Virus record (IMG/VR): IMGVR_UViG_2851982317_000004
Source: a virus
Taxonomy: Duplodnaviria; Heunggongvirae; Uroviricota; Caudoviricetes
DNA length: 43,699 nt
Reading direction: 5' to 3' (one strand)
The translations under genes and the position numbers were made by a program. Positions 1,120-42,653 of this stretch are shown here, piece by piece; the stretch's first letter is position 1; every line of letters begins with the position of its first letter. The notes under the pieces are model-generated. The model was not told where the DNA came from. It did not search any database and saw only the letters and a program-made list of their open reading frames with translations.

Positions 1120-1366
1120 GAGTTAAAATCTCCTTCAGTGCATCATCATCGCCAGTATGAATTTCCGGCGCAATTCCCGTTTCACCAGGTCCAACAAATA
1201 CTGCCCGGCGATCTATCAGCCAACGCCCACGAATTTTTTGTGGTCTTGGAACGATGTATCCTAGTTTTCCGTATTTCACCAGGGTAGTGTTTGTTATTGG
1301 GAGACTGAACCGTTTTGGTTTCCACTCATCGAGCGTTATCAGGTACTGTTCGCTCATGGCTATCAC
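1088..1366 (-). CDS. xis: Excisionase-like protein
   Basis: 92 aa ORF overlapping the int start by about 30 nt; N-terminal YLITLDEW resembles the YLTLQEW start of lambda Xis (from memory). Confidence 0.7.
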   Translation of the reverse strand: MIAMSEQYLITLDEWKPKRFSLPITNTTLVKYGKLGYIVPRPQKIRGRWLIDRRAVFVGPGETGIAPEIHTGDDDALKEILTHVTEATKKQH

Positions 1367-1418
1367 TCCGGAACGCGCCAGTTGCAGAATACCAACGACA
1401 ACTGGCGACGGTTGAACA

Positions 1419-3890: not shown

Positions 3891-3969
3891 GTTGTTTTAA
3901 CCTCATTACAGATTTAAGGGTGAACAAATCCCTGCCATTGCTGGCATATAAAATGAAACCGGATATTAA

Positions 3970-4227
3970 TTACGGCGCTGTTTTAAGTCCTGCCGGGATT
4001 TCGTTATTATCCATGTGAATAACTTTATCGACCGGATAGCAGTTACCGGGAATTTTTTGTTCTGCTGCGGCAGCTATGCATTCTTTCATTGAACCGTAAA
4101 TGTTAATAACCATGTCAACAGGCTCGCCAGTATTAAGAAAAACAGTCAGAGTGAGGGCAATAGCAGTATTCATTGCCAGTATCCTTTTTGCATCGGGCGT
4201 AAACGGGCCAGCATTGAAAGAATGCAT
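3970..4227 (-). CDS. Small hypothetical protein with hydrophobic N-terminal segment
   Basis: ORF in the leftward early operon. An internal ATG near 4173 forms an ATGA overlap with the stop of the upstream ORF, suggesting the real product is ~67 aa (MNTAIALTLTVF...). Confidence 0.4.
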   Translation of the reverse strand: MHSFNAGPFTPDAKRILAMNTAIALTLTVFLNTGEPVDMVINIYGSMKECIAAAAEQKIPGNCYPVDKVIHMDNNEIPAGLKTAP

Positions 4228-4454
4228 ATTTTATTTAATAGCTCCCGTTCGTATTTTCTCTTATTAATGGCATCTTCAGTAAATACAGGGTTACTGATTC
4301 TGACACCAATTTCAAAACAACCTTCAGACGTATTGACGTTTGGTAATAACGTTTCCATTATCGCGTCCTCAACAATGAATTTTGTGATGCGGCGCCTGGT
4401 GCCTCCAGGTGACGTTAACCAGTTAACAATTAACGCCGGATACAGAGAACCCAC
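4170..4454 (-). CDS. Hypothetical early protein
   Basis: Track ORF starts with GTG; an internal ATG near 4358 has a GAGGA Shine-Dalgarno 6-7 nt upstream (METLLPNV..., ~62 aa). AT-rich. Confidence 0.35.
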   Translation of the reverse strand: MGSLYPALIVNWLTSPGGTRRRITKFIVEDAIMETLLPNVNTSEGCFEIGVRISNPVFTEDAINKRKYERELLNKICILSMLARLRPMQKGYWQ

Positions 4455-4540
4455 CCATAAGAACCAATACGGAAGTCAACTGGCCTTTTTAACTGTTCCG
4501 CGTGCGCTGAGCCGCATTCACCGCATCACAAAATTCACTT

Positions 4541-4587
4541 TAAAAAGGGCGGGTATCACAAGGGAAAACAAAAAACGGATACCCGCC
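4541..4587 (-). terminator. Candidate intrinsic terminator for leftward transcription
   Basis: Perfect 10-bp inverted repeat GGCGGGTATC / GATACCCGCC (about 4548-4557 and 4578-4587) followed on the minus strand by CTTTTTA; the loop is long (20 nt), which lowers confidence. Confidence 0.4.
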
Positions 4588-4927
4588 AAAAGGTAATCAG
4601 CATGGGTTGTTGCAGCGGAGTTGTCACTTAAGCGTATGGTCAACCTGACAACCCGGTGCTCCACAGGGGAGGGAGAATAGTACCCCTGCCATACTTACCG
4701 CCGCGCCATTTCGCGGATTGCCACAACCGGAAGCGTACGGTCGAATTAAATTTAACGACAAGCCTCATAGGTGAAGGCCTTCGCCGTACGCTTTCGTGTT
4801 ATGCCCTGACTTTTCAGGGATATATCCTTTCAGTAAACTGTCAGTGCCGGATGCTCACCCGTGTCCGGCGCACGCACTCCACCTCACCCGTGGAGAACTC
4901 CTTAATTACCAACCCTCAGGAGGGTGA

Positions 4928-5161
4928 ATGTTAAAATCAACTCTTATTGCTAAATGCCTTTATCAAAATCGCATGGTAAGCAGCATTTCAATAGGCGAGT
5001 CTGCAGTTAAAAGTATTTTCGAAGAGTACTTTTCCGGGCATGATTTTAATAAATGGAATACTAAATTACCGCCAGCAGTTTCAACGCGTATTCTGAAAGC
5101 AACTGAAAGAGCAAGTACAATTCGCGTTAACTATTTCATTAAAGATTTGTGGGATCTTTGA
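4928..5161 (+). CDS. Hypothetical 77 aa protein, rightward, opposite to the early-left operon
   Basis: ORF preceded by AGGAGG 5 nt upstream of the ATG; AT-rich coding sequence; 3' end overlaps the convergent 135 aa ORF by about 23 nt. Confidence 0.5.
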   Translation: MLKSTLIAKCLYQNRMVSSISIGESAVKSIFEEYFSGHDFNKWNTKLPPAVSTRILKATERASTIRVNYFIKDLWDL

Positions 5162-5546
5162 TATCCACAGAGCCTAAAGTATGTGCATATGGATGTGCTA
5201 TTGTGCGCCCCTGTAAATTTGCATCGTTTTCTAAATCTTTTGATTTCAACAGAACATCAGCAAGACTCTGAATCATGCAGAGATAATCAAAAGCAGTTGC
5301 CGTTTCTGTTCTGATTGCTGAAATAACATGACCATTCAGGCAAACAGAAATTACCCGTTCATCAATATCGTTTTCCTGTTTTTGATTATCAGAACCATAT
5401 AGCCCTGAAAAAGCATTGCGCACATTACGAACCATATTATCGATGGTTTCTTTTTTGGTGTATGCCGGGTCAATTTTCACCAGACTATCACCGAGTGTCG
5501 TTGCAGCAATTATCTGGATTTCTTTTGGTAAATCTTTAAATTCCAT
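5139..5546 (-). CDS. Hypothetical 135 aa protein
   Basis: ORF with GAGG 7 nt upstream of the ATG; begins right after the stop of the upstream ORF (5569); AT-rich; contains RTIAHPYAH, which only loosely resembles a HEPN-type R-x-H motif. Confidence 0.55.
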   Translation of the reverse strand: MEFKDLPKEIQIIAATTLGDSLVKIDPAYTKKETIDNMVRNVRNAFSGLYGSDNQKQENDIDERVISVCLNGHVISAIRTETATAFDYLCMIQSLADVLLKSKDLENDANLQGRTIAHPYAHTLGSVDIKDPTNL

Positions 5547-5568
5547 TATTAGCCTCGTTGGTTAGCCA

Positions 5569-5787
5569 TTAACGTGGGTATGTAATCATTCTGGCAATGC
5601 TTAATGCCGCTGCTTTTTCCAGATTGGTGATATCCTGCTCCAGAGCGGACAGATTTTCAGCTTGCTTAGCCCTGGCTTCATTGGCCCATTTCAGGTCCTG
5701 CGCAGCCTTAATTTTCTGGTGCATCCACTCATAAAGTTCATCATCGGTATAGTCTGGCGCGATGATGACGGGTTCTCGTTTCTGCAT
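5569..5787 (-). CDS. Hypothetical 72 aa early protein
   Basis: ORF in the leftward operon between the repressor region and the exonuclease; helical, charged composition. Confidence 0.5.
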   Translation of the reverse strand: MQKREPVIIAPDYTDDELYEWMHQKIKAAQDLKWANEARAKQAENLSALEQDITNLEKAAALSIARMITYPR

Positions 5788-5817
5788 ACTGATTCCTCGC
5801 GGTGCTGCTTCGCTTAT

Positions 5818-5945
5818 CAGCCGTTAGATTTTGCCGAGCTGGAAAGCGCCTGTATAAACTCACTGAAGCTGAGAGCTTCTTCGCCTTTGGCAAGGCCTTC
5901 GAAGTATTCTTCGTAAGCCTTTTCCATGATTGTGTCGAAATCCAT
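5818..5945 (-). CDS. Small hypothetical protein, ~42 aa (below track cutoff)
   Basis: Hand-translated minus-strand ORF MDFDTIMEKAYEEYFEGLAKGEEALSFSEFIQALSSSAKSNG; its ATG sits 2 nt after the stop of the upstream ORF (5947). Confidence 0.35.
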
Positions 5946-5946
5946 A

Positions 5947-6183
5947 TCACTCACCTGAGTTTCTTTCCAGCCAGCGACGGGCACCATTTTCGGTTTTAAA
6001 CGTTTTGCTTTTGGTATACGTCATCGCGGTGAACGTACCGTCCTGGTTGGGGAACACGCCACATACCAGAGATTCGTTGTTGCCAAGATCGATAGTATCC
6101 ATGTTGACCTCATTTCCCCTTAACGCCGGGGTAGCGGAACAAAAACCTGCTGCATAGTTATTAAAGTTGAACCCTGCCGTCAT
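5947..6183 (-). CDS. Hypothetical 78 aa protein, first gene of the leftward early operon
   Basis: ORF immediately downstream (leftward) of the candidate PL; not Arg-rich, so not an N-like antiterminator. Confidence 0.5.
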   Translation of the reverse strand: MTAGFNFNNYAAGFCSATPALRGNEVNMDTIDLGNNESLVCGVFPNQDGTFTAMTYTKSKTFKTENGARRWLERNSGE

Positions 6184-6283
6184 GTTCTTACGCCTCGGGC
6201 TGGCTACTTAACCCCTGACCACTGCCTAGTAACTCGAAGTATTGCCCTGCGTTCTGTGGGGCGGGGTGGGTTGATATGCAATA

Positions 6284-6312
6284 AATCTAAAAGTATTTAG
6301 TTTTATAGTCAA
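6284..6312 (-). promoter_or_regulatory. Candidate leftward early promoter (PL-like) overlapping operator repeats
   Basis: Minus strand reads TTGACT, 17 nt, TAGATT; AATCTAAA-type repeats overlap (about 6285 and 6318). Confidence 0.4.
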
Positions 6313-6332
6313 GTAAAAATCTAAATTAATTT

Positions 6333-6357
6333 AAAAAAAGGTCGGCATAACCGACCT
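6333..6357 (-). terminator. Intrinsic terminator downstream of the repressor gene
   Basis: 7-bp stem AGGTCGG / CCGACCT with 5-nt loop, followed on the minus strand by a T6 run. Confidence 0.5.
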
Positions 6358-6379
6358 TAAGTTCAAGAACATGGCAGGG

Positions 6380-7027
6380 TTATAGGTTGAACTGTACACC
6401 CTTTGCTACGGCAACAATTTTACACTCTGGCGTAAGCAAGGATGATTGATAGCGCGGATTGAGAGGGCTTAAATACACAAGTTTTCCATCAATAACTAAT
6501 TTTTTTATAGTCATAGACGGTTCATTTGTAAGAGGATCTGGAACTATTACAGCGACGATACTGCCATTTTTATAACTTTCTCCTGGTCTTAGGATCACAG
6601 TGGCACCAACTGGGATACTTGGCGACCCTGAGGGGTTATGCATAGTGTCATCAGGCATTGAAACGGCAAAATCACCTTCCACTACATCAAAGAATGTGGT
6701 GATCCTATCGACATTTCCCATTGTTTTCTCTCCTTCTAAGATTAGGAAAGAAATCGCGTCACCCCACGAAAAGTAGGGGATCTTGGTGCCTGGATTGCTC
6801 TGCACAAAAGATAGTTCAGGAGACGATACTCCATACAGGAGATAGGACTCAGTAGTTCCTAATGCTTGGGCTAACTTACTTAGAGCTTTGCTGCCGGGTT
6901 CGTTTAGATCTTTCTCCCAGTACCCTATAGTAACCCCAGTCACGCCTGAAAGCTTACCCAGTTCTACTTGGGTGAGTCCCTTATCTTTTCTGAGTTTCTT
7001 AAGCCTGATGCCAAGGCTTTCCATCAT
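6380..7027 (-). CDS. Phage repressor, cI/LexA-like (HTH plus S24 peptidase-like C-terminal domain)
   Basis: 215 aa; N-terminal HTH-like LTQVELGKLSGVTGVTIGYWEK; C-terminal half has the length and Ser...Lys spacing of an autocleaving S24 domain; divergent from the Cro-like gene with operator repeats on both sides. Confidence 0.85.
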   Translation of the reverse strand: MMESLGIRLKKLRKDKGLTQVELGKLSGVTGVTIGYWEKDLNEPGSKALSKLAQALGTTESYLLYGVSSPELSFVQSNPGTKIPYFSWGDAISFLILEGEKTMGNVDRITTFFDVVEGDFAVSMPDDTMHNPSGSPSIPVGATVILRPGESYKNGSIVAVIVPDPLTNEPSMTIKKLVIDGKLVYLSPLNPRYQSSLLTPECKIVAVAKGVQFNL

Positions 7028-7066
7028 TTTCTCCCGCGAGTTGAATATAAATTATTTTAGATTGCA

Positions 7067-7095
7067 TTGACCTAAAAAAAATTATCCTGTAATCT
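7067..7095 (+). promoter_or_regulatory. Candidate rightward early promoter (PR-like) with overlapping operator palindrome
   Basis: TTGACC, 17 nt, TAATCT about 30 nt upstream of the Cro-like ATG; the -10 overlaps the palindrome AATCTAAAAATACTTAGATT. Confidence 0.5.
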
Positions 7096-7123
7096 AAAAA
7101 TACTTAGATTTCAGGAGGGCGAA

Positions 7124-7351
7124 ATGCGAGTTGATGAACTTGTTCAGTTTTTTGGCTCTGTTCAGAGGGTCGCTGATTTTTATGGGATAACCCGCGAAGC
7201 TATTTACATGTGGCGTAAGCGCCCCGGTGAAATAGTTCCGAAAGGGAGAGCTGCGGAAGCTGCTGCATACTCCAAGGGAAAATTATCTTTGAACCCAGAG
7301 CTTTACAAAAAGAAGGATACCACTCAGAGCGAAAGGAAGAGTGATTCATGA
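7124..7351 (+). CDS. Cro-like small DNA-binding regulator
   Basis: 75 aa ORF divergent from the repressor, directly downstream of the PR-like promoter; HTH-like segment FYGITREAIYMWRKR. Confidence 0.65.
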   Translation: MRVDELVQFFGSVQRVADFYGITREAIYMWRKRPGEIVPKGRAAEAAAYSKGKLSLNPELYKKKDTTQSERKSDS

Positions 7352-7773
7352 AAATCAAGCATGAGCATATCCGCATGGCGATGAATGCCTGGGCGCGTCC
7401 TGATGGCGAAAAAGTTCCGGCAGCTGGAATAACCCAGGCTTATTTTGAGTTGGGTATGACGTTTCCTGAACTGTACGACGACAGCCATCCGGAAGCCCTG
7501 TCTCGTAATACCCAGAAAATTTTCCGCTGGGTAGAAAAAGACACCCCTGATGCGGTTAAAAAAATTCAGGCGTTGTTACCGGCGATCGAAAAAGCAATGC
7601 CGCCTCCGCTGGTGGCCCGAATGCGCAGCCACAGTTCGGAATATCACCGGGAGCTTGTCGAGCGACGGGAGCGCCTGGTGAAAGATATCGATGAGTTTGT
7701 TGCGGCAGCGATCGTGTTGTTCGATCAGATGAATCGTGGTGGTCCGGCGGGAAATGCCGTGGTGGCGCATTGA
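7348..7773 (+). CDS. YdaT-like protein (CII-position gene)
   Basis: 141 aa; start overlaps the Cro-like stop; the N-terminus MKIKHEHI matches my recollection of Rac YdaT; sits in the cII position. Confidence 0.5.
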   Translation: MKIKHEHIRMAMNAWARPDGEKVPAAGITQAYFELGMTFPELYDDSHPEALSRNTQKIFRWVEKDTPDAVKKIQALLPAIEKAMPPPLVARMRSHSSEYHRELVERRERLVKDIDEFVAAAIVLFDQMNRGGPAGNAVVAH

Positions 7774-7797
7774 TAACGTGTTCTGGGGGGGGGGAGG

Positions 7798-8763
7798 ATG
7801 AAGCTCCTTTTTGCTGAACGTCCGCTGGTTATAAACACGCAGCTGGCGATGAAAATTGGTCTGAACGAAGCCATCGTGTTGCAGCAGTTGCATTACTGGT
7901 TGAGAGATACCGGTTCCGGCATGGAATGTGATGGTGTTCGCTGGATTTATAACACAACAGAACAATGGCTGGAGCAGTTCCCGTTCTGGTCAGAGTCAAC
8001 GTTAAAACGCGCATTTGCAAGTCTGAAAACGCTGGGGCTTTTGCGTTGCGAAAAGCTCAATAAATCAAAGCGTGATATGACTAATTTTTACACGATTAAT
8101 TACGAGAGCGAGCTTTTAGATGGTGGCAAAGTGAGCGAATCCATCAGGTCAAAATGCGCTGCTCCATCAGGTCAGAATGACACGATGGAAGAGGCCAAAA
8201 TGGCACGTTCCATTGGTTCAAAACGACTCAATGTCATCGGGTCAAAATGGCCTGATGATCTTACAGAGAATACAACAGAGATTACTACAGAGAATAAAAA
8301 CACTTCTCGTCCGGAAGCTTCGCAACCGGACCCGCAGACGGTTGAACAGGATTTTTTAACCCGACACCCTGACGCGGTTGTGTTCAGTGCAAAAAAACGC
8401 CAGTGGGGCAACCAGGAAGATTTGGCGTGTGCGCAGTGGATCTGGGGGCGAATCGTGAGTCTTTACGAGCAGGCCGCCAGCGATGATGGCGAGATTTCGC
8501 GACCGAAAGAACCCAACTGGACCGCATGGGCCAACGACGTGCGCACAATGCGGATGCTGGATGGCAGAACTCACAGACAAATTTGTGAAATGTTTGGTCG
8601 GGTGCAGCGGGATCCATTCTGGGTAAAAAATATCATGAGTCCGTCAAAGCTTCGCGAAAAATGGGATGAACTGGTTATCCGCCTGGGGCGTTCGTCTGTA
8701 CAGCGTTGTGTGAATCATATTTCTGAGCCGGATACCGAAATTCCGCCGGGGTTCAGGGGGTAA
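7798..8763 (+). CDS. Replication initiation protein (lambda O / YdaU-position, replisome organiser-like)
   Basis: 321 aa ORF immediately upstream of the DnaC-like loader gene; central acidic low-complexity linker; position and order typical of initiator/loader pairs. Confidence 0.65.
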   Translation: MKLLFAERPLVINTQLAMKIGLNEAIVLQQLHYWLRDTGSGMECDGVRWIYNTTEQWLEQFPFWSESTLKRAFASLKTLGLLRCEKLNKSKRDMTNFYTINYESELLDGGKVSESIRSKCAAPSGQNDTMEEAKMARSIGSKRLNVIGSKWPDDLTENTTEITTENKNTSRPEASQPDPQTVEQDFLTRHPDAVVFSAKKRQWGNQEDLACAQWIWGRIVSLYEQAASDDGEISRPKEPNWTAWANDVRTMRMLDGRTHRQICEMFGRVQRDPFWVKNIMSPSKLREKWDELVIRLGRSSVQRCVNHISEPDTEIPPGFRG

Positions 8764-8769
8764 CGGGCC

Positions 8770-9516
8770 ATGAAAAATATCGCGGCAGGTGGTGTTCTTG
8801 AGCGTATCCGTAAGCTGACCCCGCAGCATGTAATCGCGCCGTACCGGACAGTGGATGAGTGGCGCGAGTGGCAACTGGCTGAAGGGCGAAAACGTAGCGA
8901 GGAGATCAACCGCCAGAATCGCCAGTTGCGGGTGGAAAAAATCCTGAATCGTTCGGGCATCCAGCCTCTGCACAGCAAATGCTCGTTTGCGAATTATCAG
9001 GTGCAGAACGACGGGCAAAAACATGCGCTGAGCCAGGCAAAATCCATCGCTGACGAACTGATGACCGGGTGCACGAATTTTGTGTTCAGCGGTAAGCCGG
9101 GTACCGGAAAGAACCACCTTGCAGCCGCCATTGGCAATCATCTTCTGGCGAAAGGTCGCAGCGTGATTGTGATAACGGTGGCTGATGTGATGCTGGCGTT
9201 ACACAACAGCTACGACAACAAAAACTCAGGCGAAAAATTTTTACAGGGGTTGTGTGATGTTGACCTGCTTGTCCTGGATGAAATCGGAATGCAGCGGGAT
9301 ACGCGCAACGAGCAGGTCACACTGAACCAGATAGTCGACCGCAGAACGGCTTCGATGCGTAGTGTCGGAATGCTGACGAACCTGAACCACGTAGCGATGA
9401 GTACGCTTCTTGGCGAGCGTGTGATGGACCGCATGGTCATGAACGGTGGTCGCTGGGTGAATTTTAACTGGGAGAGCTGGCGTTCGAATGTCAGACACCT
9501 GAGGGTTGTGAAGTAA
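8770..9516 (+). CDS. DnaC-like helicase loader (IstB-like AAA+ ATPase)
   Basis: Walker A GKPGTGKNHLAAA and Walker B LLVLDEIG visible; 248 aa; follows the initiator gene. Confidence 0.85.
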   Translation: MKNIAAGGVLERIRKLTPQHVIAPYRTVDEWREWQLAEGRKRSEEINRQNRQLRVEKILNRSGIQPLHSKCSFANYQVQNDGQKHALSQAKSIADELMTGCTNFVFSGKPGTGKNHLAAAIGNHLLAKGRSVIVITVADVMLALHNSYDNKNSGEKFLQGLCDVDLLVLDEIGMQRDTRNEQVTLNQIVDRRTASMRSVGMLTNLNHVAMSTLLGERVMDRMVMNGGRWVNFNWESWRSNVRHLRVVK

Positions 9517-11595: not shown

Positions 11596-11854
11596 ATACA
11601 GCGAACGCTATTGGTTTAGTTGGATATTTACTGTGCCGGACAAAAACGGTTTGCAGGGAAATCTTAGTTAAGTAGAATGACTGTGGGTGCTTGAGGCTAT
11701 CTGTCTCAGGCATGAACACCAAAAGGCAGATAGAGAAAAGCCCCAGTTAACATTACGCGTCCTGCAAGACGCTTAACATTAATCTGAGGCTCAATCCATG
11801 CTGAACACATGTAGGTTAGCCTCTTACGTGCCGAAAGGCAAGGAGAAGCAGGCT

Positions 11855-12010
11855 ATGAAGCAGCAAAAGGCGATGTTAATCGCCCTTATCGTCATCTGTT
11901 TAACCGTCATAGTGACGGCACTGGTAACGAGGAAAGACCTCTGCGAGGTACGAATCCGAACCGGCCAGACGGAGGTCGCTGTCTTCACAGCTTACGAACC
12001 TGAGGAGTAA
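11855..12010 (+). CDS. hok: Hok/Gef-family type I toxin (51 aa)
   Basis: MKQQKAMLIALIVICLTVIVTALVTRKDLCEVRIRTGQTEVAVFTAYEPEE has the Hok/Gef signature (single TM segment, conserved Cys, C-terminal AYE) and matches my recollection of E. coli HokD/RelF; long structured leader upstream and an intrinsic terminator just downstream. Confidence 0.85.
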   Translation: MKQQKAMLIALIVICLTVIVTALVTRKDLCEVRIRTGQTEVAVFTAYEPEE

Positions 12011-12457: not shown

Positions 12458-13516
12458 GTGCGGGTATTACTTCGACCTGTTTCGGTACCGGAACTCGGGC
12501 TGGTGATCGTTAAGCCGGGCCGTGAATCCATGCCGGTATTCCACAATACCCGGGTACTGGTGGAGCCGGAACCGAAAAGCATGCGTAATCTGCCGTCCGG
12601 GGTCGTTCCTGCCGTTCGCCAGCCGCTGGCGGAGGATAAATCATTACTGCCATTTTTCAGCGATGAGCGGGTGATTCGTGCTGCTGGTGGTGCTGGTGCA
12701 CTGTCTGACTGGCTGTTACGCCACATTAAATCCTGCCAGTGGCCTCATGGTGACTACCATCACAGCGAAACCGTCATACATCGTTACGGTACCGGTGCAA
12801 TGGTGTTGTGCTGGCACTGCGACAACCAGCTGCGTGACCAGACTTCCGAATCACTCGAGCAACTTGCTCATCAAAACCTGTCAGCATGGATGATTGACGT
12901 CATACGCCATGCAATGAATGGCACGCAGGAGCGGGAATTATCGCTGGCTGAATTATCCTGGTGGGCGGTCTGCAATCAGGTGGCGGACGCGCTACCAGAG
13001 GCAGCATTACGCCGTTCGCTGGGGTTGCGTGCGGAAAAAATCCGCTCAATGTACCGTGAAAGCGACATCGTACCGGGAGAGCAGACCGCCACCAGCATAC
13101 TGAAGCAGCGCACAAAAAATATTGCGCCGTTGCCTCACGCCCACCAGCAACAGAATCCACCACAGGAAAAGACGGTGGTCAGCATTGCCGTTGATCCGGA
13201 GTCACCGGCTCAGTATCTCCAGCGCCAGAAACCACAACGGGAAGAGATGCCTGTATACACGCGTTGGGTAAAAACGCAGAAATGCATGACGTGTGGCAAT
13301 CAGGCAGATGATCCGCATCACATCATGGGTCATGGACTGGGAGGGATGGGAACAAAGGCTGATGATTTGTTTGTTATTCCGCTGTGCCGTAAATGCCATA
13401 GCGAACTACACGCCGGGGTAAAAGATTTTGAAGAAAAACACGGCAGCCAGCTGTTGTTGCTGATTCGTTTTTTAATGCACGCGAGAAATTCGGGTGTCCT
13501 GAAGTGGAAAGCATGA
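12458..13516 (+). CDS. DUF968/YdfU-like protein with C-terminal HNH-like Cys/His cluster
   Basis: 352 aa; GTG start with GGAGG 4 nt upstream; C-terminal CMTCGNQADDPHHIMGH...LCRKCHSELH; sits upstream of rusA as in Qin-like nin regions (from memory). Confidence 0.6.
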   Translation: MRVLLRPVSVPELGLVIVKPGRESMPVFHNTRVLVEPEPKSMRNLPSGVVPAVRQPLAEDKSLLPFFSDERVIRAAGGAGALSDWLLRHIKSCQWPHGDYHHSETVIHRYGTGAMVLCWHCDNQLRDQTSESLEQLAHQNLSAWMIDVIRHAMNGTQERELSLAELSWWAVCNQVADALPEAALRRSLGLRAEKIRSMYRESDIVPGEQTATSILKQRTKNIAPLPHAHQQQNPPQEKTVVSIAVDPESPAQYLQRQKPQREEMPVYTRWVKTQKCMTCGNQADDPHHIMGHGLGGMGTKADDLFVIPLCRKCHSELHAGVKDFEEKHGSQLLLLIRFLMHARNSGVLKWKA

Positions 13517-13882
13517 ATGACTGAACGCATAGAATTTGTTTTGCCTTACCCGCCAACGGTGAACACTTACTGGCGACGTCGTGGCAGCACATATTTTGTA
13601 TCAAAAGCCGGTGAGCGTTATCGCCGGGATGTGGCGCTTATTGTTCGCCAGCAGCGGCTGAAATTAAACCTGTCCGGAAGGCTGGCGATAAAGATTATTG
13701 CAGAGCCACCGGATAAACGTCGTCGTGACCTGGACAATATCCTGAAAGCACCACTGGATGCGCTGACGCATGCCGGACTTCTCATAGACGACGAGCAGTT
13801 TGATGAAATCAATATTGTGCGCGGTCAGCTCGTTCCTGGGGGGCGGCTGGGCGTGAAGATTTACAAAATTGAGAGTGAGTGA
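13517..13882 (+). CDS. rusA: RusA-family Holliday junction resolvase
   Basis: 121 aa with the RusA-type motif RRDLDNILKAPLDAL; typical position just upstream of the antiterminator gene. Confidence 0.88.
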   Translation: MTERIEFVLPYPPTVNTYWRRRGSTYFVSKAGERYRRDVALIVRQQRLKLNLSGRLAIKIIAEPPDKRRRDLDNILKAPLDALTHAGLLIDDEQFDEINIVRGQLVPGGRLGVKIYKIESE

Positions 13883-14433
13883 TCGTAAATATGATATACC
13901 CGGAAATTACAGGCAAAAGCGGCGAGCATTTACGTCTAAAAACGCTGGAAGCCGTCTGGATCCAGGGGAAATTACGGATGTGGGGGCGTTGGTCGTATAT
14001 AGGTGGTGGCAAACCAGGAAATATGTTCAATCAGTTGCTGGCATCCAAAAAACTGACAAAAACCGCAATCAATGAAGCCCTGCGTAGAATCAGAGAGTCA
14101 GGGATTGATAAACCAGAGCTGGAAGCATTCTTGCGAGAGATGATCGCTGGCAGACAGAAGAGCTGGTTGTCTCACTGTACTGATGCAGAGGCGTTACGCA
14201 TTGATGGGGTGATAAGTAAAGCGCTTGCACGTTATCCTGGATTGATTGATATCCTGCGGCAAAGGTACGAAGGGCGGGGGATGAGTAAACGCAAAATGGC
14301 TGAATTGTTGAATGAGGTTCACCCTGAGTGGTGCTATGCAACATGCCGCAATCGTATAGATATGTGGCTGAGAATAGCTGAGTTTATTCTGTATCCACTG
14401 ATGCGAGATGCATTTTCTTTTACTGACGCTTAG
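13879..14433 (+). CDS. Putative late-gene antiterminator (Q-like), called by position
   Basis: 184 aa ORF directly after rusA, followed by an intergenic region ending in a strong intrinsic terminator (tR'-like); not similar to lambda Q itself; GTG at 13879 or ATG at 13891. Confidence 0.45.
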   Translation: MIVNMIYPEITGKSGEHLRLKTLEAVWIQGKLRMWGRWSYIGGGKPGNMFNQLLASKKLTKTAINEALRRIRESGIDKPELEAFLREMIAGRQKSWLSHCTDAEALRIDGVISKALARYPGLIDILRQRYEGRGMSKRKMAELLNEVHPEWCYATCRNRIDMWLRIAEFILYPLMRDAFSFTDA

Positions 14434-14598
14434 AATCTGGAGGGCGTTTGTTGTTGCACGAAGAGGATTTTTGGCTGGTAGTAAGGTTTATGCAGTTTTA
14501 GAAAAAAAGCTTGTATTTTTAGCCATAAACTGTTTCAATCCAGCTACGCTTCGCAAAGCTGTACCGCGAGGCGAATAGCAGACATGGACACCTGAAAG

Positions 14599-14622
14599 AA
14601 CCCGCTTTATGCGGGTTTTTTT
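14599..14622 (+). terminator. Intrinsic terminator (tR'-like) downstream of the Q-like gene
   Basis: Stem AACCCGC / GCGGGTT with loop TTTAT followed by T7. Confidence 0.6.
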
Positions 14623-14745
14623 ATGCCTGAAAAACGGCACAGAACATTAAACGCGCTGGTAGTTGTGAATACTGGTCTTTCAGCTTGCTGGCTTTTTGGA
14701 CAAGAGTTATTGGTATGTCACGTTAACCGGAAAAGGGAAAAAGGC

Positions 14746-14943
14746 ATGCTAAAACAGCAGGATATGACCGAAACCGCCAGAGTGGTGTTTAATGAATTAA
14801 GCGTCACCGAACCGGCGACCGTCGGGGAAATTGCGCAGAATACTTACCTTTCACGCGAACGTTGCCAGTTAATACTGACTCAGCTTGTTATGGCGGGTCT
14901 GGCAGATTATCAGTTCGGTTGTTACAGACGCCTTCCGCAGTGA
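14746..14943 (+). CDS. Small hypothetical protein (~65 aa), first late-region ORF
   Basis: Internal ATG of track ORF 14623..14943 with AAAAGGGAAAAAGG upstream; the track ORF's first 40 codons overlap the terminator. Confidence 0.45.
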   Translation: MLKQQDMTETARVVFNELSVTEPATVGEIAQNTYLSRERCQLILTQLVMAGLADYQFGCYRRLPQ

Positions 14944-15093
14944 AGGCTTTTTAATTTGTGGTAATGGGCGGCTGGTGGGTGTTAGCGGCACCTGCCAGCC
15001 ATCTGCTCATGCGTTGGGGTCACAAGCAAACCTCAGGCCCATCTGCTTTGCGCAAAAGCGGTATGAGCCTATCAGAGAAGTGCTTATTGATCT

Positions 15094-16143
15094 ATGATTA
15101 ATACTGTAAAAATATCCAGTTGTGAGTTAATCAACGCTGATTGCCTGGAGTTTATCCAGACCTTACCGGAAAACTCTGTCGATCTGATAGTCACAGACCC
15201 GCCATACTTTAAAGTGAAGCCCGAGGGCTGGGATAACCAGTGGAAGGGCGACGATGATTACCTGAAATGGCTGGACCAGTGTCTGGCGCAGTTCTGGCGG
15301 GTACTGAAGCCTGCCGGAAGTCTTTACCTGTTCTGTGGTCATCGCCTGGCATCTGACACCGAAATCATGATGCGTGAGCGCTTTAATGTGCTGAACCACA
15401 TTATCTGGGCGAAGCCGTCCGGACGCTGGAACGGGTGCAATAAGGAAAGTCTGCGGGCGTATTTTCCGGCAACAGAGCGCATTCTGTTTGCAGAACATTA
15501 TCAGGGACCGTATCGCCCGAAAGATGATGGCTATGTGGCACAGGGGCGCGAGCTAAAACAGCACGTCATGGCCCCGCTGATTTCTTACTTTCGTGATGCG
15601 CGTAAATCACTGGGAATAACGTCAAAACAGATAGCGGAAGCCACCGGAAAGAAAAACATGGCTTCGCACTGGTTTGGTGCCAGTCAGTGGCAGTTACCGA
15701 ACGAGGGTGATTACAATAAATTGCAGGCGTTGTTTGCGCGTGTTGCGGCAGAAAAACATCAGCGCGGGGAACTGGAAAAGCCACACCACCAGCTGGTCAG
15801 CACATACAGTGAGCTGAACCGGCAGTACACGGAACTGCTGAGTGAATATAAAAATTTGCGGCGGTATTTCGGTGTGACGGCGCAGGTTCCGTACACCGAT
15901 GTCTGGACGCATAAACCGGTGCAGTACTATCCAGGAAAACATCCGTGCGAAAAACCGGCAGAAATGCTGCAGCAGATAATCAACGCGAGCAGTCGTCCGG
16001 GAGACCTGGTTGCAGATTTTTTTATGGGTTCAGGTTCAACGGTAAAAGCGGCGATGGCACTGGGGCGTTGTGCGATTGGTGTTGAGCTGGAGACAGGACG
16101 TTTTGAACAGACAGTCAGGGAAGTTCAGGATTTAATCGTTTGA
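15094..16143 (+). CDS. DNA N6-adenine (or N4-cytosine) methyltransferase, beta-class
   Basis: 349 aa; motif IV DPPY (VTDPPYF) near the N-terminus and motif I FxGxG (FFMGSGST) near the C-terminus. Confidence 0.88.
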   Translation: MINTVKISSCELINADCLEFIQTLPENSVDLIVTDPPYFKVKPEGWDNQWKGDDDYLKWLDQCLAQFWRVLKPAGSLYLFCGHRLASDTEIMMRERFNVLNHIIWAKPSGRWNGCNKESLRAYFPATERILFAEHYQGPYRPKDDGYVAQGRELKQHVMAPLISYFRDARKSLGITSKQIAEATGKKNMASHWFGASQWQLPNEGDYNKLQALFARVAAEKHQRGELEKPHHQLVSTYSELNRQYTELLSEYKNLRRYFGVTAQVPYTDVWTHKPVQYYPGKHPCEKPAEMLQQIINASSRPGDLVADFFMGSGSTVKAAMALGRCAIGVELETGRFEQTVREVQDLIV

Positions 16144-16192
16144 AACGGATGAGATTGCAGAATTAATTACGCACCATTATTATTCTGCTCCC

Positions 16193-16268
16193 GGCCCTTT
16201 AGCTCAGTGGTGAGAGCGAGCGACTCATAATCGCCAGGTCGCTGGTTCAAATCCAGCAAGGGCCACCA
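16193..16268 (+). tRNA. ileZ: tRNA with anticodon CAU, probably tRNA-Ile2 (lysidine type; ileX/ileZ-like), Met not excluded
   Basis: Hand-folded cloverleaf: acceptor GGCCCTT/AAGGGCC, D-arm GCTC/GAGC, anticodon loop CTCATAA, T-arm GCTGG-TTCAAAT-CCAGC, encoded CCA; close to E. coli ileX as I recall it. Confidence 0.85.
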
Positions 16269-16275
16269 TCACATA

Positions 16276-16352
16276 CCGCCATTAGCTCATCGGCAGAGAG
16301 CGTCAGCTTTCGAAACTGGCTGTGTGGGGCTCGGGTCCCCGATGGCAATCCA
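16276..16352 (+). tRNA. tRNA-like gene, non-canonical; possible tRNA-Arg (anticodon UCG, argN-like)
   Basis: Hand fold gives a D-arm GCTC/GAGC, anticodon loop TTTCGAA and encoded CCA, but positions 1-2 are unpaired C-A, the anticodon stem has a mismatch and the T-loop is CTCGGGT instead of TTCRANY. Confidence 0.4.
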
Positions 16353-16365
16353 TTATCTGCATTAT

Positions 16366-16442
16366 GCGTTGTTAGCTCAGCCGGACAGAGCAATTGCCTT
16401 CTAAGCAATCGGTCACTGGTTCGAATCCAGTACAACGCGCCA
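16366..16442 (+). tRNA. argO: tRNA-Arg (anticodon UCU, argU/argO-like)
   Basis: Hand-folded cloverleaf: acceptor GCGTTGT/ACAACGC, anticodon arm ATTGC-CTTCTAA-GCAAT, T-arm ACTGG-TTCGAAT-CCAGT, encoded CCA. Confidence 0.85.
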
Positions 16443-16617
16443 CGCTTATTTTTCCAGGCTCGCTTTGGCGGGCCTTTTTCATATCCGCGCCACGCCCGGC
16501 GCACATCAAAAAACCACAGAGCCTTTCAGGGGTGAGCTTACGGGATGGTCAGTGTGACTTTCTCTGTGGGCTGGTCACCCCCGGGCGCAGGCTCACCCAC
16601 TAAAAGGAAAAGTCACG

Positions 16618-17043
16618 ATGTTTGGTATTTTCAAAAAGAAAACCCGCAAGGCCATTACCGAAGTGAAGAAGATGGAGAACCGTGACGCAGTGGAGGCGAC
16701 CGTCTGGGGCGCGTACTCCATTGCATACGCTGACGGCACCTGTGACGCGAAAGAAATCGCGGTACTGGAAAAAACCATTGCAGCACTTCCTGCCTTTGCG
16801 CCGTTCTCCGGTGAGATTGCACAAATGAGTGCAAATATCCGCGCCCGTTATGAAGCGTCGCCGCGTTCTGCCAATGCCGAAGCTCTTCGTCAGCTGGCTG
16901 ATGTTGCCGGTACTGATGATGCAGTTAATGTGCTGTGCCTGTGTCTGGATATCGCTGACCAGGACGGTATCGCTCAGGAAGAAGAAGCGCAACTGAAGAA
17001 AATTGCGCAGGCGCTGCAGTTGCCGCTGGAGCAGTACCTGTGA
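16618..17043 (+). CDS. TerB-like domain protein (cargo at the late-promoter insertion site)
   Basis: 141 aa ORF immediately downstream of the tRNA block; the TerB-like call is from memory of the overall pattern (acidic helical protein, DGTCDAKEIAVLEKTIA...). Confidence 0.5.
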   Translation: MFGIFKKKTRKAITEVKKMENRDAVEATVWGAYSIAYADGTCDAKEIAVLEKTIAALPAFAPFSGEIAQMSANIRARYEASPRSANAEALRQLADVAGTDDAVNVLCLCLDIADQDGIAQEEEAQLKKIAQALQLPLEQYL

Positions 17044-17279
17044 AAAGTGCGCGCCTTGTGCTGGCTGTCATCCTGTTGTTTCTGGTAGTGGTGGTTGATT
17101 TCACCGGACGACTGATGTCGGTGCTGGCAGATGGTGTGCTGGTGGCGATGGCGCTGGTCGTGCTCCGGCCTTTACTGCGTAAATCTGAATAACATCACAC
17201 AAAAGGCATCTGCGGATGCCTTTGACGGGGTGTTTTTTTACGGGTCGCTGGTGGCCCTTTTTTATTTTCAGGAGGAAGT

Positions 17280-17672
17280 ATGTCTGAACCCTTATCCGGT
17301 TCCGGCACGGCTGCGGCGCTGGGTGGCGCGACGGTATTCGGGCTGTTTACCGGGATGGATTTCGGGATTGTGTTTGGCGCGTTCGCCGGGGCGTTATTTG
17401 TGGCAACAATGCCACAGTCACTTTCAGTCTGGCGCGTGGTGGCACATTTTCTGGTGTCGTTTATTGTCGGCGTGCTGGGAGCGCGTGTGCTGTCAGCCTG
17501 GATTGCATCAAAAACAGGGTATGACGCTACATCAGCAGATGCGCTTTGCGCGGTGCTGGTCTCGGTGGTGTCGGTGAAGATTCTCTCGTTCATCCACCAG
17601 CAGGATATTGCATCGCTGGTGTCCGGTGTGTTCTCCCGCCTGCGGGGTGGAGGAGGCGGCAATGTTAAGTAA
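17280..17672 (+). CDS. Putative holin (three predicted TM segments)
   Basis: 130 aa with three hydrophobic segments and a Gly-rich C-terminus; AGGAGG upstream; two genes upstream of the endolysin. Confidence 0.5.
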   Translation: MSEPLSGSGTAAALGGATVFGLFTGMDFGIVFGAFAGALFVATMPQSLSVWRVVAHFLVSFIVGVLGARVLSAWIASKTGYDATSADALCAVLVSVVSVKILSFIHQQDIASLVSGVFSRLRGGGGGNVK

Positions 17673-17937
17673 CCTTCCCGGATTGCTGAATGTGGCGTTA
17701 TGCGCGGTTATCGTGCTGACGCTCTTTTTTTATCGTCGCCGTGATTCCAGACATAAACCGCTGGTGTCATGGCTGGCCTGGCTGCTGATGCTGCTGTATG
17801 CCTTTGCGCCCCTCAGCTATCTGTGTGGTCGCCCGTTAGCAACGGGCTGGCTGGAAGTGTTTTTTAATCTGCTGTTCTGCGTGCTGGTGATACGCGCACG
17901 CGGGAACGTCACAAAAATCTTTCCATTGTTGAGGTGA
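17661..17937 (+). CDS. Membrane protein, second holin/antiholin-like lysis protein
   Basis: Internal ATG of track ORF 17608..17937, overlapping the upstream stop; three hydrophobic segments; its end overlaps the endolysin start. Confidence 0.45.
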
Positions 17938-18317
17938 ATATGCCGGGTAAATTCAGATTCAGCCGTCGCAGTGAAAAAAATCTGGAGGGTGTCAAACCAC
18001 AGCTGGTTGCTGTAGTTCGCCGTGCGCTGGAGCTGACGGAGGTTGATTTCGGTATTACGGAAGGCCTGCGCAGTAAGTATCGCCAGAAACAGCTGGTTGC
18101 GGAAGGGAAAAGCCAGACCATGAACAGCCGCCACCTGACCGGTGATGCGGTGGATGTTGTGGCCTACATTGGCAGTCAGGTGTCATGGGAGTGGCCTCTG
18201 TACGAGAAAATCGCACAGGCATTTAAGCAGGCTGCCGCAGAGCTGGGGATCGCTATCGAATGGGGCGGGGACTGGAAAACGCTGAAAGACGGACCTCACT
18301 TTCAGCTGAAGCGATAA
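17934..18317 (+). CDS. Endolysin, peptidase M15-type (L-alanyl-D-glutamate peptidase-like)
   Basis: 127 aa with zinc-ligand-like motifs SRHLTGDAVDV and DGPHFQL; follows the holin-like genes. Confidence 0.8.
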   Translation: MNMPGKFRFSRRSEKNLEGVKPQLVAVVRRALELTEVDFGITEGLRSKYRQKQLVAEGKSQTMNSRHLTGDAVDVVAYIGSQVSWEWPLYEKIAQAFKQAAAELGIAIEWGGDWKTLKDGPHFQLKR

Positions 18318-18326
18318 GTAAAACAA

Positions 18327-18358
18327 AACCCCGGCTGGGGGAACAGTCCGGGGTTTTT
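18327..18358 (+). terminator. Intrinsic terminator after the endolysin gene
   Basis: Stem AACCCCGG / CCGGGGTT followed by T5. Confidence 0.5.
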
Positions 18359-18449
18359 AGTTTTCACGTCAAAGGGGAAATTGTGATTAGTGAGTAGGGA
18401 GAAAATCCTCGTGGGAAAGTATAAAAGATTCTTTTTGAGGTTGTCCATT

Positions 18450-18563
18450 ATGAAAGGTATTGAAATGGAAACTCCCGCGAGCCTTGATTTGACAAGGGCT
18501 GCGGCCTTTGCAATTCGCCTTGTGGCGGTCGCTGTTCTGATTTGGGCTGTGCGTTGGTGGTGA
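18450..18563 (+). CDS. Small hydrophobic ORF (~37 aa), possible lysis accessory
   Basis: Hand-translated MKGIEMETPASLDLTRAAAFAIRLVAVAVLIWAVRWW; its stop lies 2 nt before the lipoprotein ATG. Confidence 0.25.
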   Translation: MKGIEMETPASLDLTRAAAFAIRLVAVAVLIWAVRWW

Positions 18564-18564
18564 T

Positions 18565-18747
18565 ATGGCGCGAAAACACTGGACACACAGAATGCCGCGA
18601 ACGGCGGTGAAACGGGCACTGGTAGCGATACTGGTGCCTTTTTTATTGGTGGGGTGCGTCAGCCTGGATAAGGCGCGCCAGCTTTTCGATACCGCGTCTC
18701 AGGTCTGTGAAATTGTCGACGGTGTTCGGCAGTGTCTGCAGAACTGA
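18565..18747 (+). CDS. Small lipoprotein candidate (possible spanin-like)
   Basis: 60 aa with a signal peptide and lipobox-like LLVGC; located after the endolysin where Rz/Rz1 usually sit, but too short for a canonical spanin. Confidence 0.35.
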   Translation: MARKHWTHRMPRTAVKRALVAILVPFLLVGCVSLDKARQLFDTASQVCEIVDGVRQCLQN

Positions 18748-19020
18748 TCGCCTGTAAGAGCAGAATATTTTGCTGAAAAATGAAGGGTGCGTCAGCGTCC
18801 GGAAAGCATGAAATTCTGCTGCGTGTGCCAATTTTATCTTATTCATTCTAAATCTTGCCGAATCAAGATGAACTTTGATCAACTGCCCGGCGGCAAGGGG
18901 CATTAAAACAGGAGAAAATTATGTGGAAACCTACAGGTGATAAGTTAATCACCGCGTTGATTGACGGCAAGCCACAATACTTACGCATTGAAATGAGCGG
19001 TCAACATGCTCGATTGATTC

Positions 19021-42069: not shown

Positions 42070-42653
42070 TGGCATTCAGAATGAGTGAACAAGCACGGAC
42101 CATAAAAATTTATAATCTGCTGGCCGGAACTAATGAATTTATTGGTGAAGGTGACGCATATATTCCGCCTCATACAGGTCTGCCAGCAAACAGTACCGAT
42201 ATTGCACCACCAGATATTCCTGCTGGCTTTGTGGCTGTTTTCAACAGTGATGAGGCATCGTGGCATCTCGTTGAAGACCATCGGGGTAAAACGGTTTATG
42301 ACGTAGCGTCAGGGGACGAGTTATTTATTTCTGAACTCGGTCCGTTACCGGAAAATGTTACCTGGTTATCGCCGGAAGGGGAGTTTCAGAAGTGGAACGG
42401 CACAGCCTGGGTGAAGGATACGGAAGCAGAAAAACTGTTCCGGATCCGGGAGGCGGAAGAAACAAAAAACAACCTGATGCAGGTAGCCAGTGAGCATATT
42501 GCGCCGCTTCAGGATGCTGCAGATCTGGAAATTGCAACGGAGGAAGAAACCTCATTGCTGGAAGCCTGGAAAAAGTATCGGGTGTTGCTGAACCGTGTTG
42601 ATACATCAACTGCACCTGATATTGAGTGGCCTACGAACCCTGTCAGGGAGTAA
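42069..42653 (+). CDS. tfa: Tail fibre assembly protein Tfa
   Basis: 194 aa; ATG overlaps the stf stop (TAATG); colinear with lambda Tfa as I recall it (MAFRMSEQ..., C-terminal IAPLQDA...IEWP). Confidence 0.85.
42492..42653 (+). repeat. Direct repeat copy 1 (tfa 3' end)
   Basis: About 160 bp highly similar to 43541..43699 (the reading frame is preserved in both copies). Confidence 0.7.

Follow-up and report, generated by a model that had tools for sequence, protein, structure and literature searches.

We analyzed IMG/VR virus record IMGVR_UViG_2851982317_000004, a stretch of 43,699 nucleotides (the window), and here describe its interval 13879-17192, the late-operon start of a mosaic prophage with a lambdoid early part and a phiP27-type late part. 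The cargo found behind its tRNA genes is already named: it is the tciA/tciB pair of phage P1 and does not consist of new genes. As a whole, we read the locus as the start of a late operon in which tciAB fills the slot used by stx in Shiga toxin (Stx) phages, would act as an accessory module of the lytic phase, and was replaced by stx2e in a related lineage; we give this combined reading a probability of roughly 0.6. Its identity and layout, taken separately, can be stated with high confidence. There is nothing unusual about the feature as such: the prophage is of the non-Stx kind within the phiP27/lambdoid group, and a known gene pair fills its toxin slot. The locus is hereby clarified: it is no cryptic toxin locus but a routine non-Stx relative of Stx phages, and annotations of tciAB exist for hundreds of genomes and phage-plasmids. 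Novelty is possible only for the conserved, folded leader RNA in front of tciA; the family of such leaders and a tciB relic in phiP27 deserve further study. The cargo cassette consists of the following features:

16456..16480, + strand: terminator-like hairpin with T-run, the 5' edge of the cassette (scan)
16481..16617, + strand: structured 5' leader of tciA, 137 nt (conservation, covariation, covariance model R1, fold energies)
16618..17043, + strand: tciA, a TerB-fold protein of 141 aa, orthologue of P1 TciA (tblastn, PHROG, Pfam, AlphaFold)
17040..17192, + strand: tciB, 50 aa, two hydrophobic helices, DUF3927 (PF13064; Pfam E 1e-14; PHROG 1470 'TciB-like'; hydropathy)
17203..17267, + strand: two hairpins with T-runs between cargo and lysis cassette (17203-17222; 17242-17257 plus T-run; sequence and scan)

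The toxin slot can be located by direct comparison. A megablast search against 50,697 phage records returned 312 matching records, 172 of them with names that begin with 'Stx', and the best match was the Stx2e phage phiP27 (NC_003356). Two blocks align with the latter: window 14611-16491 (from the 3' arm of the tR' stem onward, with a small open reading frame (ORF), a methyltransferase gene, the tRNAs and the hairpin) at 89.9% identity, and window 17098-18311 (3' end of tciB, holins and endolysin) at 90.2%. The first block also shows 80-90% nucleotide identity to Stx2a, Stx2c and Stx2d phages, and all alignments end at the same left junction, 16491. Because the phiP27 blocks flank the cargo and the Stx2a/2c/2d phages stop at 16491, cargo and stx strictly occupy one and the same position. 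A previous reading of the DNA (further the sequence-only reading) had described the layout as mirroring that of Stx phages; the nucleotide comparison goes further and shows direct homology. Between the two blocks phiP27 has 1,512 bp carrying stxA2e and stxB2e, against 606 bp in the window (16492-17097: leader, tciA and the 5' part of tciB), which agrees with the earlier statement that non-toxin genes rather than stxAB sit here. No stx ORF or stx homology was found at the slot (ORFs, Pfam, phage megablast), and in a tblastn search of the phage records TciA occurred in no record named as a Stx-converting phage. Given E-values of about 1e-14 for the tRNAs and of 0 for the Stx-phage homology, these matches did not arise by chance.

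In phiP27 a relic of the pair is still present. The last ~95 nt of tciB (locus L001 6395-6490, equal to window 17098-17192) are found directly after stxB2e with a 1-nt deletion; the relic is frameshifted and decayed, and lies beneath an unrelated annotated minus-strand ORF. It is visible by DNA alignment only, as tblastn with TciB failed there (the sequence is short and of low complexity). The hairpins at 17203-17267 are kept downstream of the relic. On the left side, the similarity of phiP27 and the Stx2a/2c/2d phages to the window extends through the hairpin and T-run and ~10 nt into the leader, beyond which the sequences differ. Since phiP27 retains both the 3' relic and the shared left junction, we infer as the simplest reading that in its lineage an stx2e cassette replaced a resident leader-tciA-tciB cassette, with tciA, the greater part of the leader and the 5' portion of tciB lost in the process. 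Relic and junction together would give a concrete picture of a toxin cassette displacing resident cargo, and they point to the recombination joints. For 933W-type Stx2a phages no tciB relic was found at the megablast level (via prophage JLK-2012); here homology resumes only at the nanS-p gene. Overall, phiP27 resembles the window at ~90% nucleotide identity over small ORF, methyltransferase, tRNAs, holins and endolysin, with the same HNH and terminase genes next and the same cargo slot, but differs in its Q gene, in a GIY-YIG nuclease gene located upstream and in its unrelated early region. The phiP27-like packaging genes (HNH endonuclease, P27-family small terminase, large terminase) and the two-holin plus M15 cassette are 90-97% identical to phiP27 at the nucleotide level.

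TciA is 85.8% identical to TciA of phage P1 (tblastn) and matches PHROG 632 end to end (E 5e-64). A TerB-like protein had been proposed for the cargo position, and the profile search of 16618..17043 bears this out: Pfam TerB (PF05099) scores 32.2 bits against a cut-off of 24.4, aligned over residues 11-57 only, and the domain is present in all close TciA homologues. The AlphaFold model (pLDDT 85.5) contains six helices and its only confident match in the Protein Data Bank (PDB) is 2H5N (probability 1.00, TM 0.54-0.57, E 0.05), which we take to be a TerB-like protein; on the model, TciA is predicted to have the all-helical TerB fold. A sequence search against PDB chains yielded only spurious PNPase and histone matches, and a fold search was needed. 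TciA proteins from P1 to N4-like phages retain two acidic motifs of the D-G-x(5)-E type, A-D-G-x-C-x(3)-E and D-G-I-x(3)-E. PF05099 and the helical fold are shared with TerB of the terZABCDEF operon (IncHI2 plasmid R478, O157 islands) and with the TerB domains of Shango, Bunzi and Dionysus. In contrast to these, TciA is a stand-alone protein whose sole constant partner is a membrane peptide of 50 aa; there is no TerC, TerD, TerZ, helicase, ATPase or pore-forming partner at the window locus, and PADLOC gives no system match.

The GTG start of tciB overlaps the TGA stop of tciA (ORF overlap 4 nt), so that tciB is probably translationally coupled to tciA. In the hydropathy profile TciB has two hydrophobic segments with basic ends. 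Regarding the 'small membrane ORFs' that had been counted as cargo, one (17040-17192, TciB) holds and the next two membrane ORFs turned out to be holins. A tciC gene is absent, as the hairpins and a holin gene follow tciB without any further small ORF in the cassette. We also noted a protein (P0060, 196 aa, from a Logan assembly) with TerB and DUF3927 domains in one ORF, a natural TciA-TciB fusion that is usable to model the pair and is probably due to a one-base change at the overlapping stop/start.

Phage P1 is the closest named system. Besides the identity of TciA, it shares a TciB-like DUF3927 gene directly next to tciA and tRNA genes close by; its tciA-tciB-tciC genes lie between tRNA genes in the C1-repressed ban operon, by the record's annotation a lytic operon under repressor control. 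P1 differs in having tciC, in having no structured leader (no match of model R1) and divergent predicted promoters there, and in its phage-plasmid context with no Q-controlled late operon. A tblastn search with TciB at E <= 0.01 did not return P1; P1-like phages show ~50-55% over residues 20-50. A genome-wide CRISPRi screen of P1 found tciA, tciB and tciC all non-essential (PMC10695390), and later papers call the tci function unclear (PMC9603915; PMC4319500). No experimentally tested function of TciA or TciB was reported in the search results or papers found.

The pair is widespread. At least 80% of the length of the 709-bp cassette is present in 164 of 5,426 complete E. coli genomes, and 147 of these 5,426 have the arrangement tRNA-cassette-holin. 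Enterohaemorrhagic E. coli (O157:H7, O26, O145, O55:H7) carries a second tciA allele (~42% amino acid identity) behind the same tRNAs and leader. Of 21 informative loci from other Enterobacterales, all of which continue past tciA, 19 have tciB as the directly following gene. Of 800 plasmids with tciA, 782 are non-mobilizable, which fits a phage-plasmid origin, and none of the ~40 plasmid tblastn matches listed pointed to a ter operon. The pair also occurs in virulent Schitoviridae (N4-like; FSL SP-058) and in Erwinia jumbo phages; its presence in strictly virulent phages is on record (PMC3728262, PMC4319500). In the virulent 240-kb Erwinia jumbo phages Asesino, Caitlin and pEa_SNUABM_6 (L037-L039, ~990-1830) the order is tRNA-Cys, leader, tciA, tciB. 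Prophages with at least three Q types and three lysis cassettes use this slot (e.g. JLK-2012, O157:H7, 09-00049, 442/2, EC416, CD45). Prophage JLK-2012 (O55:H7) and the O157:H7 prophage of strain 17B6-2 resemble the window in Q, tRNAs, the same leader, tciA and tciB and in the position relative to the late promoter, the latter prophage also in its DUF1133 Q-like gene. Both differ in the second tciA allele, followed by a nanS-p-type esterase gene and a lambda-type S/R/Rz lysis cassette, and JLK-2012 has tRNA-Asn, -Thr and -Gly in place of Ile/Arg/Arg. Temperate lambdoid phages, P1-like phage-plasmids, N4-like and jumbo phages all carry tciAB, and the present prophage offers a simple inducible system to test the function of the pair.

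Turning to expression, a scan of the + strand for sigma-70 promoters gave no match in 13500-18800. In the tciA leader no promoter was seen even by a relaxed scan, whose only product was a weak candidate at 16155-16183. Terminator-like hairpins lie at 14599-14622, 14930-14947, 16456-16480, 17203-17267 and 18333-18351. This pattern of terminators and promoters suggests a Q-antiterminated late operon. Given the terminator pattern, the operon context in P1 and the presence of the pair in virulent phages, expression in lytic growth is favored over expression in the lysogen, and production of the cargo is probably confined to the lytic phase. The sequence thus fits the proposal of the sequence-only reading that the cargo may be expressed on induction. 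In a lysogen, RNA polymerase starting at pR' would stop at tR', and any tRNA transcript would stop at the 16456-16480 hairpin. After induction, Q would render RNA polymerase terminator-resistant, placing tciA-tciB on the late transcript just before the lysis genes.

As for the products, TciA would be a soluble or peripheral TerB-fold protein with two acidic motifs and TciB a two-helix micro-protein of the inner membrane, most likely forming a joint membrane-associated module at the envelope in lytic growth; TerB has been described as membrane-associated or amphitropic in the literature. Such a module may serve in stress protection, in exclusion of incoming phage or colicin, or in interference with TerB-based membrane surveillance of the host. 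Since all three tci genes are non-essential in the P1 screen and natural deletions and pseudogenes exist, tciAB appears to be accessory and non-essential. We propose a membrane-associated accessory module of lytic growth tentatively, at odds somewhat short of even. Several points weigh against it. The Q-dependence of tciAB is deduced from sequence, and the match to a pR' promoter is weak (3/6 in the -35 hexamer; TTCAAT with an upstream TG as -10). The weak site at 16155-16183 could give some read-through in the lysogen. The module model builds on the analogy to TerB and the hydrophobicity of TciB, PADLOC finds no defense-system match, and frequent gene loss argues that any benefit would be conditional.

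Alternatively, tciAB might be lysogenic-conversion or defense genes expressed from the resident prophage, acting in superinfection exclusion, against pore-forming colicin or in tellurite/oxidative-stress resistance. The P1 gene names and the phenotypes of the R478 ter operon suggest such a role, and TerB domains are part of the validated defense systems Shango, Bunzi and Dionysus. The slot past Q is moreover the classical moron site for Stx and other genes that benefit the lysogen (PMC4104026), and a weak promoter-like site is present 5' of the tRNAs. Nonetheless, the leader has no promoter and a terminator directly upstream, the P1 operon is under the C1 repressor, and strictly virulent N4-like and jumbo phages carry the pair, where protection of a lysogen would be meaningless. 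In PADLOC-DB 2.0, TciA and TciB match no defense family at E <= 0.1 (only the methyltransferase matches, to MTase_II). Tellurite resistance needs further ter genes, and none of them (terC/terD/terE, terZABCDEF) appears in the RefSeq annotation of the 43.7-kb window; the authors of PMBT3 argued likewise for a lone terB. We therefore regard expression for the benefit of the lysogen as unlikely and prefer the lytic-phase module. The fact that TerB domains are now emerging in anti-phage systems adds interest to the function of tciAB.

A classical moron reportedly has its own promoter upstream and a terminator downstream, as described for HK97/lambda by Juhala et al. The tciAB cassette is similar as an extra gene unit between late-operon modules and has the downstream terminator, but it begins with a terminator and is without a detectable promoter, which is the reverse. 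Prophages of O157 have been described to encode anti-sRNAs of the AsxR/AgvB type in the gap that separates a moron gene from the following ORF (PMC4104026); there was no Rfam match in 17193-17279, and no further search for such an RNA was made.

The genes that follow the cargo form the lysis cassette:

17280-17672, + strand: holin (Phage_holin_8; PHROG 198)
17662-17937, + strand: holin (Phage_holin_3_7; PHROG 217)
17940-18317, + strand: M15 endolysin (Peptidase_M15_4; PHROG 465)

This cassette is 90% identical to phiP27 L28-L30. Given that tciAB lies immediately 5' of two holin genes, and that TciB, like many holin regulators, is a very small membrane protein of two helices, it might be argued that the pair is functionally part of the lysis cassette, e.g. 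as an antiholin-like or lysis-timing device. This is very unlikely: phiP27 has no tciA and no intact tciB, E. coli 504237 has the same holins and endolysin right after the leader without tciAB, an esterase gene of 1.85 kb separates tciB from the holin in O157:H7, JLK-2012 and CD45, and the lysis genes of P1, N4-like and jumbo phages lie far away from the pair. In other prophages the same cargo cassette precedes a class II holin/YdfR/lysozyme/Rz or a two-holin/GH108 cassette. The TerB-like ORF, being absent from phiP27 and strain 504237 and found beside three different lysis cassettes, thus lies outside the lysis cassette. Two variants show how the cargo is lost. In the near-identical prophage of 504237 (L013 2644-2835) a precise tciA-tciB deletion has kept most of the leader, and the holin follows the leader directly. 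In O114:H49 strain 90-9280 (L005 2506-2709) tciA is a 5'-deleted pseudogene and tciB is intact; enterotoxigenic E. coli (ETEC) H10407 shows the same match pattern.

The leader between the 16456-16480 hairpin and tciA is conserved well beyond its gene. Its identity is 76-97% at the nucleotide level 5' of both tciA alleles, whose proteins are ~42% identical, and it was found in Escherichia, Citrobacter, Klebsiella, Enterobacter, Pantoea, Franconibacter, Buttiauxella and Pseudescherichia. It is still detectable at ~72% in the Erwinia jumbo phages, where TciA is only ~41% identical. The hairpin accompanies the tciA leader even where the upstream gene is no tRNA. We distinguish the following elements, all on the + strand, with SD standing for the Shine-Dalgarno sequence:

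16487-16491/16498-16502: P0 hairpin
16514-16521/16562-16569: Stem A
16522-16526/16603-16607: H1, anti-SD CCUUU with SD AAAGG
16530-16539/16589-16598: H2, long helix

The leader folds more stably than shuffled sequences (z = -3.1). Compensatory forms of Stem A include CCACAGAG/CUCUGUGG, CCGUAGAG/CUCUACGG and CCGCAGAG/UCUGCGG, and the stem is seen with the pairings CACAGAG/CUCUGUG, CGUAGAG/CUCUACG, CGCAGAG/UCUGCG, GAAAG/CUUUC and GAGAG/CUCUC; H2 shows a swap from AU to UA, and H1 almost never varies. Covariation scores exceed those of all 500 shuffles and all slid controls, with the caveat that the sequences are related. Predicted energies are -42.6 kcal/mol for the Stem A fold and -51.0 kcal/mol for the long hairpin, at a minimum of -54.4 kcal/mol. 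The 5' strand of Stem A abuts H1 and its 3' strand falls in the apical region, which makes Stem A look like an alternative to the long hairpin. The leader might thus adopt two folds, a long hairpin that pairs the SD AAAGG with CCUUU or a Stem A fold that leaves the SD free, and it would probably limit or time translation. In kinetically controlled leaders such as the 5' UTR of the MS2 maturation gene and hok mRNA, the SD is likewise paired with an upstream complement and a competing fold exists; this is an analogy only, and the leader differs from them in having no sequence or Rfam relation. Rfam (version 15) gave nothing relevant at E <= 1 over 16440-17300 and nothing at E <= 10 for the type-2 copy; weak matches to STnc100, isrB and Hammerhead_II are noise, far below gathering scores. 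First RNAalifold structures from alignments of 6 and 21 sequences disagreed, and Stem A was preferred to helix 3 of the second structure, which the Erwinia phages do not preserve.

Leaders of this kind are not restricted to tciA. The covariance model built from tciA leaders gave weaker second copies in two prophages, before a different gene. A scan of IMG/VR with a 15-base core found at least 120 stretches, with follow-up on the 80 loci listed. Among these, 75 model matches were obtained at E <= 0.01, nearly all of full length and at the pattern site; the loci listed encode 72 downstream proteins in 13 unrelated clusters. A downstream start codon at the position fixed by the model is seen in nearly all leader instances listed, and a stable hairpin with T-run precedes 65 of 86 distinct instances, the hairpins being non-homologous to each other. 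In the wider family the SD pairs with an upstream CCUUU or UCUUU, the minimum-energy fold of the consensus is the hairpin hiding the SD, and a further helix (H3) shows one pair as CG 16, GC 14, UG 9 and GU 2 times. Copies outside the window lie at L017 6477-6599, L033 7448-7566 and L086 3696-3818 and in ~75 IMG/VR loci (L042-L121). No paper on this leader family was found in a non-exhaustive search.

Together, these data suggest, at just under even odds, that 16481-16617 belongs to an undescribed family of cis-acting leader RNAs that mark late-operon cargo cassettes (terminator, leader, variable cargo; at least 13 families and at least 120 IMG/VR instances, extending to Erwinia jumbo phages) and switch between hiding and exposing the ribosome binding site, and that the Stx2 cassette entered by replacing such a cassette. 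Weighing against this, most H1 pairs are invariant and uninformative either way, the minimum-energy fold of the window sequence is neither named fold exactly, and the alternative folds are model predictions. It is also conceivable that the leader is a module-boundary sequence, kept by recurrent homologous recombination and conserved through cassette shuffling rather than as a functional RNA. The leader indeed sits exactly at the joints of differing upstream modules (tRNAs, a RelE/HTH pair, other ORFs) and differing cargo, the breakpoint of the Stx phages falls inside it, and the 'empty' prophage of 504237 retains it. We consider this doubtful, given that compensatory changes preserve the Stem A and H3 helices, G-U pairs fit only an RNA of the sense strand, the spacing between motif and start codon is constant in almost every instance, and the motif is recognizable in the Erwinia jumbo phages despite their distant TciA. 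The two readings of the leader, boundary sequence and functional RNA, are not mutually exclusive. If it is a true regulatory RNA, it would be a common, unrecognized control element of phage accessory genes and a sequence handle for finding prophage cargo.

Upstream of the cassette, the sequence-only reading had listed a Q-like gene, a tR'-like terminator, an amino-methyltransferase and three tRNA sites besides the cargo, and all of these were found in place or close by:

13891..14433, + strand: Q-like late antiterminator, DUF1133 family (RefSeq WP_001398904.1, ATG start at 13891; previously a GTG start at 13879)
14511..14622, + strand: pR'-like promoter, short leader and tR'-like intrinsic terminator (by sequence reading)
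14746..14943, + strand: small conserved ORF, 65 aa, homologue of phiP27 L23 (PHROG 331, E 1e-37; RefSeq WP_000917767.1)
15094..16143, + strand: DNA N6/N4 amino-methyltransferase, no partner nuclease nearby (Pfam N6_N4_Mtase, E 2e-44; PADLOC MTase_II, E 2e-160)
16193..16268, + strand: tRNA, anticodon CAT; tRNA-Ile in RefSeq, ileZ type (ARAGORN; Rfam tRNA 72.5 bits; RefSeq and phiP27 annotation)
16276..16352, + strand: degenerate tRNA-Arg(TCG)-like sequence, argN remnant (ARAGORN; Rfam 26.4 bits, below the gathering score of 29; unannotated in RefSeq)
16366..16442, + strand: tRNA-Arg(TCT), argO type (ARAGORN; Rfam 70.1 bits)

The Q-like assignment is confirmed by Pfam DUF1133 (E 2e-101), by Phage_antitermQ (27.8 bits at a cut-off of 26) and by PHROG 753 'anti-termination protein Q-like'; both the N- and C-terminal ends of the protein also weakly match the solved Q21 structures 6P18/6JNX (E ~0.009). 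The Q-like protein, TciA, TciB and the holins matched no NCBIfam model. The tR'-like terminator could be read in the sequence as an AACCCGC/GCGGGTT stem (14599-14605/14611-14617) with a 5-nt loop and a T-run to 14622, 166 nt past the Q stop; the automatic scan missed it, probably since stem extension consumes the T-run. The candidate pR' promoter, a weak extended -10 type within a conserved block, comprises TTGTAT (14511-14516), a spacer of 17 nt and TTCAAT (14534-14539), with the TG at 14531-14532. The pR'/tR'-like block is kept in O157:H7 and B7A prophages despite differing upstream sequence. In the antitermination unit, protein and terminator are thus clear and the promoter is weak; a Q-binding or pause element could not be defined. 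The stretch from the Q gene to this block is a second cargo slot: it holds two hypothetical genes in B7A (396 and 177 aa; L006 1148-2871) and the GIY-YIG nuclease gene in phiP27 (L001 1689-2918), and is empty in the window. The amino-methyltransferase proposed earlier is likewise supported by its N6_N4_Mtase and MTase_II matches; NCBIfam adenine-methyltransferase models match it below their cut-offs.

ARAGORN calls all three tRNAs, and the outer two are real by their Rfam scores. The middle one was correctly labeled degenerate, since it scores below the Rfam threshold, RefSeq skips the site and an intact copy exists in strain B7A; base changes in its acceptor stem and T-loop set it apart from that copy. 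The idea that the tRNAs serve the codon usage of the cargo was ruled out, as tciA and tciB contain zero ATA, AGA and AGG codons. Just 5' of the first tRNA, the weak promoter-like site at 16155-16183 reads TTGCAG, 17 nt, TATTAT, and could allow tRNA transcription in the lysogen, stopping at the 16456-16480 hairpin. Linkage of tRNAs and tciAB recurs elsewhere: tRNA-Cys is upstream in the Erwinia jumbo phages, P1 has tRNA-Asn/Thr upstream and tRNA-Ile downstream, and JLK-2012 has Asn/Thr/Gly. In a lambdoid prophage of E. coli CD45 (L011 2623-3318) a RelE/HTH toxin-antitoxin pair replaces the three tRNAs, directly 5' of the same leader and the second tciA allele.

With regard to its source, window 13879-18400 matches the chromosome of E. 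coli E2528-C1 (an ETEC isolate from human stool) at 100% identity and prophages of many other strains, several of them ETEC-named, at 97-99.7% (ETEC6, B7A, H10407). The RefSeq annotation across the window describes one complete prophage. Its early region contains integrase, excisionase, exonuclease, dicB, cI/cro-like and O/P-like replication genes, hokD/sok, DUF968 and RusA. The middle comprises the DUF1133 protein, the methyltransferase, two annotated tRNAs, a 'tellurite resistance TerB family protein', a DUF3927 protein, two holins and an M15 peptidase; the late region has an HNH endonuclease, 'terminase small subunit P27 family', the large terminase, HK97-type head genes and tail genes. The record of phage vB_Apl-pPE4 (PP818812.1, 16385-19310) has 91% DNA identity to the prophage region, with the leader 98.6% and TciA 97% identical; it was deposited with the host Actinobacillus pleuropneumoniae, an assignment that looks doubtful. 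A hok/sok type I toxin-antitoxin locus is located in the nin-like region (window 11685-12010), with Rfam sok at 11685-11860 (118.9 bits) and the hokD coding sequence at 11855-12010. Finally, Rfam family IS009 matches at full length on the + strand of window 42412-42610 (225 bits), which by conversion of RefSeq coordinates is the region of the tail-fiber assembly gene.

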